Origin: Spirochaetia bacterium
GTDB lineage: Bacteria > Spirochaetota > Spirochaetia > DSM-2461
Assembly (NCBI GenBank): GCA_963666985.2
Contig: CAXXIA010000002.1
Span: 2,336,001-2,400,000, forward strand
DNA length: 64,000 nucleotides
Direction of reading: 5' to 3'
Positions 6,265-8,775 of this stretch are shown in pieces. The position numbers and the translations under genes are program-made. How positions within the stretch are numbered: position 1 is the first letter of the stretch; the number at the start of each line of letters is the position of its first letter. Below the pieces are notes generated by a model that did not search any database, had not been told where the DNA came from, and was given only the letters and a program-made list of their open reading frames with translations.

Positions 6265-6421
6265 TTTTATAAAAAATATTTGATAAGGAGGGATGGACTT
6301 CTCCATGCTTTATATTCTCTTCATTCGATGTCTGTTTCTTATATCTATCTTATATGGATGATTCAATAAGAATAAAATTAAATTGGGAGATGAGCCTCCC
6401 ATGTTCTCTATACGGCAAAAA

Positions 6422-8144
6422 GGGGCTGTCTCATAAGAGGCGGCCCTTTTTCATGTCTGGAAGAATTCCCTTCTGAATTCAAGGGTGGTAGAATTCTTCA
6501 TGGACACTAAAAAGAAGGCTACATTCAAAGATTACGAAATCAGCCAACAGATGCTCCTGCCTCCAAGTCTCGATGAACTGCTTCCCGCAAACCATATATC
6601 CCGCACAATCAACAACTTCATCGACACGATGGATACCAGTGAGCTCTTCAACGCCTATCCGGGAGGCGGTGCCAGCAGCTACCACCCGGTGATGATGCTG
6701 AAGGTTCTGGTGTTGGCCTACTCGAAACAGCTGTATTCCTGTCGTCAAATCGCAGACGCTCTTCGTGAGCAGATATGCTTCATGTGGATCAGTGGTAATA
6801 ACCGTCCTGATTTCCACACGATAAACAGATTTCGTAACGGTCCATTGAAGAAGAGCATCGAGAAAATCTTTGCCTCAATGGCCAACAGCCTCATCGAGAG
6901 CGGACATGTCCAGATGGAGAACTACTTTCTCGACGGCACAAAAATCGAATCAGCAGCTAACAAATACACATGGGTATGGGGCCGGGCGACAGACAAGTTC
7001 CAGAAGCGCCTGGCCGGCAATATGGATGAGCTTTTCGAATACATCGACCGCATCAATGAAGAAGAGGATGAGAAGTACGGCGACCATGACCTTCCCCATG
7101 TGGATCCTCAAGGCAGGCCGATGTCGGAGATTCTCGAAGATGCGGTATCCAAGCTCAATGAAGAGCTGCGCAAGGATCGGGAGGAGCGAGAAAAGAAGGA
7201 GATTCAACGGAGATTGAATACCGCTAGCAAGGACTATCTCCCTCGTGCCAAAAAGTATGAGCAGCAGAAGAGAATCCTCGGCGACCGAAATAGTTACTCG
7301 AAAACAGACTATGATGCGACTTTCATGCGGATGAAAGAAGACTATATGAAAAATGGTCAGCTCAAGCCCGGGTACAACATCCAAATGGGTACTGAGAACC
7401 AGTTCATCCTCGGATATAGCATCCACCAGAGTCCCGGTGACTCCCTGACATTGCCGCTACATATGGAGAAACTGAAAAAGAATCTGAAACGCTATCCGAA
7501 AAGAATCATTGCTGATTCAGGATATGGTAGTGAAGAGAACTACCAGTGGTGTGAGGATCATGGTGTCGAGAAGTACATCAAGTTCAGCTACTTCCACAGG
7601 GAGCGGAAACGGAAGTTCAAGAAGCAGATTCATATGAAAGAGAACTGGGACTATCGTGCCTCTGATGATACATACCGGTGCCCCAAGGGTCGCCGATTCA
7701 AACACGAGGAGACCAGAATCTCGAAAACAGGTTCAGGATTTCCGACCACTGAAAAAAGGTATACAGGCCCTGGATGCCAAAGGTGTTCTCTCCGAATCCG
7801 GTGCTGCAAATACGGAGGCAAAGAGCGCATCCTGACGGTTCGTCCAAACCTGGAACGGCATAAGTCTGAAGTGCGCAAGTTGCTGACTTCAGAGGAAGGA
7901 CTGAGAATGCGCTCTCTCAGGCCGATTGAAGTCGAATCTGTATTCGGAGATATCAAGACGAATATGGGATTTCGGAGATTCCGAACCAGGGGATTGAAGA
8001 TGGTCAGTACTGAATGGGGACTGTTGAGTATGGCTCATAACATGAGGAAGCTACAGAAACGATAAGGGGATGGGAGGGAACCTCCCGTCTTCGGAGGTCA
8101 ACCAAATTTTAAAAGGGGCTGTCTCAAACTAATGAGACAGCCCC
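6422..8144 (+). mobile_element. IS1182-family insertion sequence
   Basis: Left end GGGGCTGTCTCATAAG (6422-6437) and right end CTAATGAGACAGCCCC (8129-8144) form a 15/16 inverted repeat around a single transposase. Confidence 0.85.
6500..8065 (+). CDS. IS1182-family DDE transposase
   Basis: Motifs YHPVMMLKVLV, PDFHTINRFR, FLDGTKIESAANKY, SYSKTDYDATFMRMKED, ADSGYGSEENY and VESVFGDIK. Confidence 0.95.
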   Translation: MDTKKKATFKDYEISQQMLLPPSLDELLPANHISRTINNFIDTMDTSELFNAYPGGGASSYHPVMMLKVLVLAYSKQLYSCRQIADALREQICFMWISGNNRPDFHTINRFRNGPLKKSIEKIFASMANSLIESGHVQMENYFLDGTKIESAANKYTWVWGRATDKFQKRLAGNMDELFEYIDRINEEEDEKYGDHDLPHVDPQGRPMSEILEDAVSKLNEELRKDREEREKKEIQRRLNTASKDYLPRAKKYEQQKRILGDRNSYSKTDYDATFMRMKEDYMKNGQLKPGYNIQMGTENQFILGYSIHQSPGDSLTLPLHMEKLKKNLKRYPKRIIADSGYGSEENYQWCEDHGVEKYIKFSYFHRERKRKFKKQIHMKENWDYRASDDTYRCPKGRRFKHEETRISKTGSGFPTTEKRYTGPGCQRCSLRIRCCKYGGKERILTVRPNLERHKSEVRKLLTSEEGLRMRSLRPIEVESVFGDIKTNMGFRRFRTRGLKMVSTEWGLLSMAHNMRKLQKR

Positions 8145-8156
8145 TTTTCGCTATCG

Positions 8157-8283
8157 TACCGGCGGTACTCTCCGCAACAACGACGTTGTTGCGGAGGTTC
8201 GTCCTGCGTCGGCTCGGTCATGTCTGAGCAAGCTCAGCCACGACGCTCGCTCTCCTTGTCCGTCGAACTCTTCGAGTCCTCCC
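8157..8283 (-). repeat. 127-bp structured repeat, copy 1, ending in the tRNA-Leu 3' terminus
   Basis: Differs from 8351-8477 at 4 positions; on + it begins TACCGGCGGT, identical to 8521-8530. Confidence 0.9.
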
Positions 8284-8350
8284 GAGGTCTCCAAATGAGT
8301 AAGCGTGATTCTGTGAGTAAAAGATGGTGGCCCGGGGGATAAGATGTCTA

Positions 8351-8477
8351 TACCGGCGGTACTCTCAGCAACAACGTCGTTGTTGCTGAGGTTCGTCCTG
8401 CGTCGGCTCGGTCATGTCTGAGCAAGCTCAGCCACGACGCTCGCTCTCCTTGTCCGTCGGACTCTTCGAGTCCTCCC
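8351..8477 (-). repeat. 127-bp structured repeat, copy 2, ending in the tRNA-Leu 3' terminus
   Basis: Direct repeat of 8157-8283. Confidence 0.9.
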
Positions 8478-8482
8478 ATAAA

Positions 8483-8519
8483 CCAGAAAAAGCCACCCCG
8501 ACGGGATGGCTTTTTCTGG
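8483..8519 (-). terminator. Hairpin directly downstream of tRNA-Leu, probable intrinsic terminator
   Basis: CCAGAAAAGCCA-CCCCGACGGGA-TGGCTTTTTCTGG inverted repeat with A/T tracts. Confidence 0.6.
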
Positions 8520-8520
8520 A

Positions 8521-8604
8521 TACCGGCGGTCGGACTCGAACCGACACGTTCTTGCGAACAACAGATTTTGAGTCTGTCGTGTCTACCAATTTCACCACGC
8601 CGGC
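8521..8604 (-). tRNA. tRNA-Leu (anticodon CAA)
   Basis: Minus strand GCCGGCGTGGTGAAATTGGTAGACACGACAGACT-CAA-AATCTGTTGTTCGCAAGAACGTGTCGGTTCGAGTCCGACCGCCGGTA; long variable arm; CCA not encoded. Confidence 0.95.
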
Positions 8605-8775
8605 GGGTAAACGTGAGACGGATTATAGGACGGGGCGGGGAGCGGGGTCAACGGAATGTGAAAGAATCGGTACCCGCCGTATTTCGATGATCGCCGGTTC
8701 GGCGGGATTCGCGGCATATCCAATACCATTCCTTTCGCGTATCATGCCGTATTCTTCGGCGGAGACTTAAAAAAG

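Follow-up and report, generated by a model that had tools for sequence, protein, structure and literature searches.

A two-unit array behind tRNA-Leu(CAA)

What kind of element comes to stand repeatedly behind a tRNA gene, carries no gene of its own and ends each time in a piece of that tRNA? The question is raised by an array in the window, by which we mean the whole 64,000-nucleotide stretch of spirochaete DNA analysed here, where tRNA-Leu(CAA) has behind it, on the minus strand, two 127-bp units, the first set off from the gene by a 43-bp spacer and the second from the first by one of 67 bp. This arrangement had been described in a sequence-only reading and was confirmed by our analysis. 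We regard the array as a variant of the tRNA-linked repeats (TLRs) described from Escherichia coli, though not as a member of them, and consider the proposition evenly balanced that it is made of gene-less folded cassettes, which probably move and reshuffle as DNA at tRNA 3' ends. The proposition starts from what was observed of these cassettes, namely their layout, their match to the host tRNA, their conserved folding, patchy presence and swapped order, and their sharp start at tRNA position 57/58.

The host gene (8521-8604, minus strand) has no CCA 3' of it in the sequence and is preceded by a predicted sigma-70-like promoter (8622..8651, minus; TTGACC and TATAAT 18 nt apart, 11 of 12 consensus matches), and a 118-aa ORF (8414-8770, plus) runs antisense to it. 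Next comes spacer A (8478-8520, minus, 43 bp), with a long hairpin and a T run; it is terminator-like on inspection, and the terminator scan did not flag it. Unit 1 (8351-8477, minus) has GGGA and then, from unit position 5, the antisense motif GGACTCGAA (8465-8473), complementary to tRNA positions 54-62. Directly after this motif, the 9-nt stretch GAGTCCGAC (8456-8464) is a sense copy of tRNA positions 57-65, and the two are predicted to form a hairpin of 6 pairs whose loop is C(GAA)G. The core, hereafter module A (8396-8455), has a long stem with two tandem G·A stacks, both invariant, and a hairpin whose loop is CTTG, and is followed by a terminal hairpin (8364-8390), which had been read as a 13-bp stem with a 1-base loop and folds instead as 12 pairs with a 3-base loop. 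The tail copy proper (8351-8360) corresponds to tRNA positions 64-73 and is preceded by GAGT (57-60), positions 61-63 being absent. The host tail copy is thus split: positions 57-65 lie near the 5' end, and 57-60 plus 64-73 at the 3' end.

Spacer B (8284-8350, minus, 67 bp) is unstructured (z = +1.0 as DNA) and leads to unit 2 (8157-8283, minus, 127 bp), whose antisense segment (8271-8279), core (8202-8261), terminal hairpin (8170-8196) and tail (8157-8166) lie on the same strand. Both units end in ACCGCCGGTA, the last 10 nt of the tRNA, and share the invariant hairpin CTGAGCTTGCTCAG; they differ at unit positions 18, 91, 101 and 111, in agreement with the four differences reported earlier. 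Against shuffled sequences, the region as a whole folds with z = -7.3, and the single units with -3.4 and -2.9 as RNA and -4.5 and -3.2 as DNA. An element with a DDE transposase gene (gene at 6485..8065, plus, DUF772 + DDE_Tnp_1_6; element at window 6418-8148) adjoins unit 2 from outside the array. This element, which we take to be IS1182-like, sits in a terminator-like palindrome, and the sequence at its end recurs many times in the genome.

The same layout at other loci of the genome

Downstream copies of a gene's own tail, lying outside neighbouring tRNAs, were found for 11 of the 48 tRNA and tmRNA genes examined; 10 of the 11 also have an antisense T-loop segment of at least 8 nt. The layout is that of an antisense T-loop, a purine-rich folded body and a copy of the host tRNA tail. 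The antisense segment and the tail vary with the host tRNA and the commoner body (type B) is common to the loci, so that the earlier expectation of terminal segments matching each host tRNA held at the sister loci as well as at the wider set described below. Tails at the sister loci have their full length of 17-19 nt, and the Gly(tcc) units lack the GAA in their antisense segment. Type B bodies have two hairpins with AGGAT/ACGAT/ATGGAT loops, and their profile gave 18 matches in the genome at E <= 0.05; a sister-body profile built from relatives matches records labelled Spirochaetaceae, Treponema and Spirochaeta.

The module A profile gave 25 matches at E <= 0.05, about 10 of which had served to train it. 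Of the 25, seven belong to tRNA-linked arrays, one follows a 23S rRNA gene and nearly all others are intergenic, some of the latter flanked by 9-12-bp direct repeats; the idea that copies would sit only behind tRNAs was therefore abandoned. The rRNA-linked copy (C2:267346-267385) lies just past the 3' end of the 23S rRNA. At C1:756740, C2:1503386 and C2:737219, which are non-tRNA sites, module-A hairpins stand between 9-12-bp direct repeats, and an inner purine stretch is partly complementary to the direct repeat, which is the same design without a tRNA.

Module A also takes part in other repeats. A second intergenic family is composite, with a shared purine-rich leader followed by module A (C2:2201600-2201950, C2:2834550-2834800, C2:2281150-2281450, C1:1261000-1261400, C2:371300-371600 and C1:1297200-1297400); three stretches of this family searched against Rfam gave no match. 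In a non-coding stretch at C2:2156300-2156800, which had no Rfam match above cut-off, a duplicated segment is split around module A, resembling what a TLR-type insertion into structured sequence might leave. The long array behind tRNA-Gly(CCC) (C1:416400-418164 and C1:404300-405600) holds five near-identical 187-bp units and a divergent sixth, together with short hairpin units of 70-80 bp, each of which has no antisense segment and terminates in a tail copy of 9 nt.

Two islands of the genome have adjacent tyrosine integrases, one of about 39 kb at the tmRNA gene (C1:798186-837627) and one of about 7 kb at tRNA-Val(CAC) (C2:2042453-2049363), and an intact TLR follows the displaced att copy of each. 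The islands push the older TLR away together with its old tail. One could see in such loci a DNA device that benefits the host, either by holding spare tRNA ends for repair after damage by islands or insertion sequences, or by offering decoy att sites. The full tails of the sister loci, the TLRs behind the displaced att copies of tmRNA and tRNA-Val(CAC) and the insertion sequence directly behind our array would suit such a role. However, an array tail without positions 61-63 could not restore a T-stem, both islands integrated on the upstream side of the TLR, at the RNA gene proper, and six of ten same-genus loci do without the repeat (see below); we consider this explanation very improbable.

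The islands also bear on whether the array is a passive relic, that is, a local duplication of the decayed end of an integrative element whose hairpins are kept symmetrical by template switching. The presence of integrase-bearing islands at the tmRNA and tRNA-Val(CAC) genes and the damaged, 10-nt tail of the array are in keeping with a relic. Against it, the full T-loop, TTC included, is preserved in both island att copies but almost never in TLR tails, which start at 57/58, and one body family has been retargeted to many different tRNAs.

Gain, loss and reordering among relatives

A relative of the same genus (G010) has an orthologous two-unit array, with units 85% and 76% identical to unit 1. 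The two spacers of our array, previously called unrelated, are indeed not related to one another, but homologues of both occur in G010 (score 39.5 for spacer A and 44 for spacer B, each reached by 0 of 2000 shuffles), and cross comparisons are at chance level. Their order in G010 is swapped, with the homologue of spacer B first and that of spacer A second. The moving unit is therefore a spacer plus a body bounded by tail repeats, and the spacers are not captured DNA. Since the spacers travel with the units, the earlier proposal that the array is a repeat-spacer record of insertion events does not stand, and a CRISPR-like array was likewise rejected because the spacers are no unique captures. 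The swapped order also speaks against the passive relic.

The array is patchily present. Ten same-genus loci of tRNA-Leu(CAA) were compared, of which six are empty and four carry some form. One of the four has the present type twice, another a type-B body whose tail is complete (19 nt), a third (G004) lacks a body and joins the antisense segment straight to the same short tail, and the last holds a partial unit. The tail at the G002 tRNA-Leu(CAA) locus is full-length. On a contig of a close strain from another sample, 333 of 341 letters are alike before it departs from the window about 18 bases into unit 2; no difference was listed in unit 1 and six in the spacers, two more being unlisted. Together with the swapped spacers of G010, the differences in this strain bear out the cassette-like mobile behaviour suggested earlier. 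At the family level, a strict layout pattern matches 22 of the 38 genomes and its reversed control none.

Other forms of tail-bearing units were seen in the relatives. Behind tRNA-Leu(CAA) of G027 stand two short hairpin units (L017), each with a 15-nt tail copy, in which an antisense T-loop segment was not seen. At two further loci (L209 in G004 and L211 in G001), the antisense segments are about 20 nt long and run from the T-loop through nearly the whole acceptor strand.

Covariation and template switching

The compensatory pair and the loop change that had been noticed between the two units are present, but differences 91, 101 and 111 amount to an inverted loop plus a matched arm change in the terminal hairpin, and one template switch would yield such a loop inversion with a matched arm change. 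As one switch could explain three of the four differences, the two units alone are no proof of selection. A similar signature was found in spacer A of the other strain, where a loop-centre flip goes with a corrected G·T pair (positions 8501 and 8506). Both observations fit the passive relic.

The wider comparison points elsewhere. Across four units (two here and two in G010), 96.3% of cells are paired and double-sided changes are found in 9 of 34 pairs, which was matched by 1 of 500 shuffles. In an alignment of 12 distinct copies of module A, double-sided changes occur in 10 of 16 pairs, a value reached by 0 of 500 shuffles; slid controls gave 1-2 pairs, although the structure was hand-drawn from the same sequences and is favoured over such controls. 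Tandem G·A is kept in 11-12 of the 12 sequences at each of four positions, and a covarying pair (C-G in six, T-A in five) lies between the two tandem G·A stacks. We read the covariation of module A as selection on a single-stranded fold, because template switching would be expected to erase the kept G·A mismatches. The structural constraint that had been proposed is thus borne out by covariation across homologues and not by the two copies. Which strand folds is not fixed by the counts of G·T and A·C pairs alone (11 vs 8, a weak signal). For the family as a whole, the passive relic is largely refuted by the swapped spacers, the covariation in the core and the comparison with island att copies; for the array, we consider it quite improbable.

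The tail copy starts at tRNA position 57/58 across bacteria

A pattern composed of a T-loop, an antisense T-loop and a tail start was used to scan 2 of the 64 parts of genome_contigs, and extrapolation from these two parts gives an estimate of about 6,800 stretches with the layout across genome_contigs. The loci carry labels of Spirochaetota, Clostridia, Coriobacteriia, Patescibacteria, Holophagaceae, Desulfuromonadales and Planctomycetota. Among the 120 loci listed, 83 have at least 15 of 20 tail letters identical, the pattern demanding 6. In viral contigs, eight stretches had the pattern, four being tRNA clusters and four the real layout, the latter probably in host flanks of proviruses. Rfam searches on 20 of the 120 loci passed only tRNAs and one Gut-1 match.

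The junction was examined at 78 distinct loci with a called tRNA (82 before deduplication), after 38 of the 120 had been dropped for a weak tail or for want of a tRNA. Identity to the tRNA is found at position 58 in 78/78, which the pattern forces, at 57 in 64/78 and at 56 in 41/78, and falls to 7/78 at 55 and 4/78 at 54. In the family, 22 loci behave alike, with 22/22 at 57, 16/22 at 56, 2/22 at 55 and 1/22 at 54. This means that the tail copy starts sharply at tRNA position 57/58. The antisense segment, for its part, follows the tRNA in all 14 loci at which tRNA and tail are unlike at position 57, a set that includes relatives; in G010, where the tRNA has A57, the antisense segment of unit 1 reads G57 and so follows its own copy and not the host. 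The survey pattern forced the GAA of the antisense segment and the loci include kin; unforced complementarity is found at positions 53 (50/78) and 52 (41/78), compared with 14-25/78 at positions 49-51.

Loops of the DNA and RNA type

Loops were counted in 65 clustered bodies. DNA-type C(GNA)G triloops occur 57 times where 18.8 are expected by chance, and GCGNAGC 33 times against 10.2; on the sense strand, neither UUCG (1 vs 0.9) nor GNRA (36 vs 29.2) is clearly enriched, GNRA being enriched on the opposite strand (16 vs 7.1). PMC13037366 attributes to mini-hairpins of this kind a much greater stability in DNA than in RNA, the RNA figure being that of the tetraloop form.

These counts bear on a further explanation, namely that read-through transcription starting at the tRNA promoter produces the units as small RNAs, which are cut at the tail copies, these serving as processing signals, and which are likely to titrate a regulator such as CsrA by means of GGA motifs, with ordinary recombination spreading them. 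The genome has csrA, TLR bodies contain C-A(N)GGAN-G loops in excess (19 vs 1.8), and in 60 of the 65 bodies the better RNA fold is that of the tRNA-sense strand. The core of module A moreover has a G(CUUG)C loop, a known RNA tetraloop. In E. coli, the rRNA-linked TLRs RrA/B/F are transcribed, processed and bound by Hfq and CsrA, as stated in the portions of PMC8144298 available for this work, and the same portions give CsrA-binder scores below 0.01 for 19 tRNA-operon TLRs, which counts against the explanation. So do the terminator-like hairpin between the tRNA and unit 1, the absence of GGA from any conserved hairpin loop of the array, the replacement of the CAGGACG linker in unit 1 of G010, and the enrichment of DNA-type triloops rather than of sense-strand UUCG. 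We regard the small-RNA explanation as somewhat unlikely, while the reading as DNA cassettes and that as small RNAs can both hold for the TLR family. A sponge RNA of the CsrB/C type was rejected for the array, in which GGA motifs lie in stems, in G·A stacks or in a non-conserved linker and not in hairpin loops; the sister bodies do have GGA-type hairpin loops.

Relation to described elements

E. coli TLRs lie directly downstream of a tRNA or rRNA gene in one to five copies per locus, are defined by the identity of their last 18-19 bp with the 3' end of the upstream RNA gene, and have been without known function since 1978, as far as the consulted sections of PMC8144298 go. With these TLRs (rttR/RtT, RF00391; RrA/B/F) our array shares the tandem arrangement, the position behind a tRNA and a 3' end that repeats the host tail, as well as an antisense copy of the host T-arm or tail near the 5' end, a feature outside the definition as those sections give it. 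Inspection of E. coli K-12 (NC_000913.3) showed in the tyrT/tyrV units a tail of 19 nt that starts at A58 and an antisense T-arm that is imperfect. The tail of the lysQ unit starts at A58 too, and this unit also has a terminator-like hairpin, an antisense T-arm of 13 nt and a body rich in purines; four further lys units are complementary to the tail alone and have no antisense GAA. In the literature searched, we did not find an antisense T-loop segment of TLRs described; the original TLR papers, which are said to be those of Egan and Landy (1978) and Rudd (1999), may mention it.

Unlike the 18-19-nt tail of E. coli TLRs, the array tail has only 10 contiguous bp and is split, and module A is also dispersed at non-tRNA sites. 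The array is a TLR variant with a split 10-nt tail, which falls outside both the 18-19-bp definition and RF00391. The sequence-only reading had beforehand set a match to a described tRNA-linked repeat family against its own account; such a match was found in layout, with the E. coli TLRs, and not in sequence, as RtT (RF00391) had no match above cut-off genome-wide. Rfam gave no non-tRNA family above the gathering score at the array locus and passed only tRNA, LSU rRNA and SRP RNA over the repeats of 18 + 4 other genome stretches, and the local profiles (module A and type B) had no match at E <= 0.05 in three E. coli TLR loci.

Several other systems share single features with the array. The TwoAYGGAY motif (RF01731) has two AYGGAY-loop hairpins on a basal stem, which the fold of the array unit lacks; its likeness is to the AGGAT/ACGAT/ATGGAT loops of the type B sister bodies and not to the array units, and its best genome-wide match lay elsewhere than in the array, at 20.7 bits against a cut-off of 43 bits. 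For this motif, too, a mobile-element-like expansion has been suggested in a preprint whose parts used here do not mention tRNA tails or antisense T-loops (bioRxiv 10.64898/2026.09.22.753630). Elements that enter tRNA genes by tyrosine integrases have in common with the array the insertion at the tRNA 3' end, the tail duplication and the tandem arrangement, whereas the array has no integrase gene in or beside a unit. We know of no internal antisense T-loop segment in tRNA-targeting integrative elements, for which a scheme of sublocations within tRNA genes was reportedly set out by Williams (2002). In REP/BIME elements with their RAYT and in IS200/IS605 ends, the cleavage site on single-stranded DNA pairs with a short guide that lies beside the base of a hairpin. 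REP/BIME are, like the array, gene-less intergenic hairpins, but neither they nor IS200/IS605 leave a host-matched tail duplication.

Candidate enzymes and a possible route of movement

Membership in REP/RAYT was rejected because the Y1_Tnp domain (PF01797) is absent from this genome, which is 93% complete. Across the 38 family genomes, Y1_Tnp occurs in eight and in only three of the nine with four or more layout matches; it does not track TLR content. An integrase-mobilised tRNA island was rejected as well, since none of the seven Phage_integrase matches in the genome lies near the array. The 115 nearest flanking ORFs of at least 75 aa on each side of good loci include one of the IS110 type and no integrase, Y1 transposase or reverse transcriptase, and a candidate enzyme for the cassettes was found neither among them nor by the Y1_Tnp survey. 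The single GIY-YIG match of the genome, in a 618-aa frame, is by its length probably UvrC; one reverse transcriptase and one IS110 gene lie elsewhere, without a demonstrated link to TLRs.

How might such cassettes nevertheless move as DNA? In the model that we favour, a cassette would comprise a spacer, the antisense T-loop segment, the hairpin body and the tRNA-tail copy. On a single strand carrying the tRNA sense, the antisense segment could pair with the host T-loop and T-stem and would thereby mark the 57/58 junction, where an enzyme of the host or of a visitor would nick and join the DNA, adding or removing a single cassette and leaving the tRNA end intact. In the array variant, the T-stem part of the tail appears to have been moved next to the antisense segment, which would lock the guide in a local hairpin, and for this reason it may be mainly recombination between the short tails that maintains or multiplies its two units. 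A mobilome study, in the parts considered here, attributes the rttR signal to a likely RNA/DNA hybrid and not to circles (10.1101/2024.07.17.603846). Extended to the whole family, the DNA-cassette model would make TLRs pan-bacterial, protein-less ssDNA cassettes that guide themselves, retarget guide and tail together, enter at 57/58 and carry swappable hairpin modules, the present array being a pair reordered between species; this extension is speculative, and we think it unlikely to hold in full.

The locus offers handles on the TLR question in the 57/58 junction, the host-tracking antisense segment, the DNA-type loops and the reordered cassettes, and it adds a module-A variant with a split tail, a swapped spacer order and the probable loss of a unit in a close strain. 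If the guide model were true, it would describe a natural insertion at tRNA genes that is programmed by base pairing in many phyla, and if the small-RNA model were true, a large overlooked class of tRNA-coupled small RNAs.

The DDE transposase element that adjoins unit 2 has counterparts in comparable settings. Elements of the same type lie in terminator-like palindromes elsewhere in the genome, e.g., at C1:338688-338737 and C2:2634185-2634233. At C1:405400-405650, Gly(CCC)-type TLR units come after an IS end of this kind and have no tRNA ahead of them, and several copies of the element lie directly behind tRNA genes or within TLR arrays.
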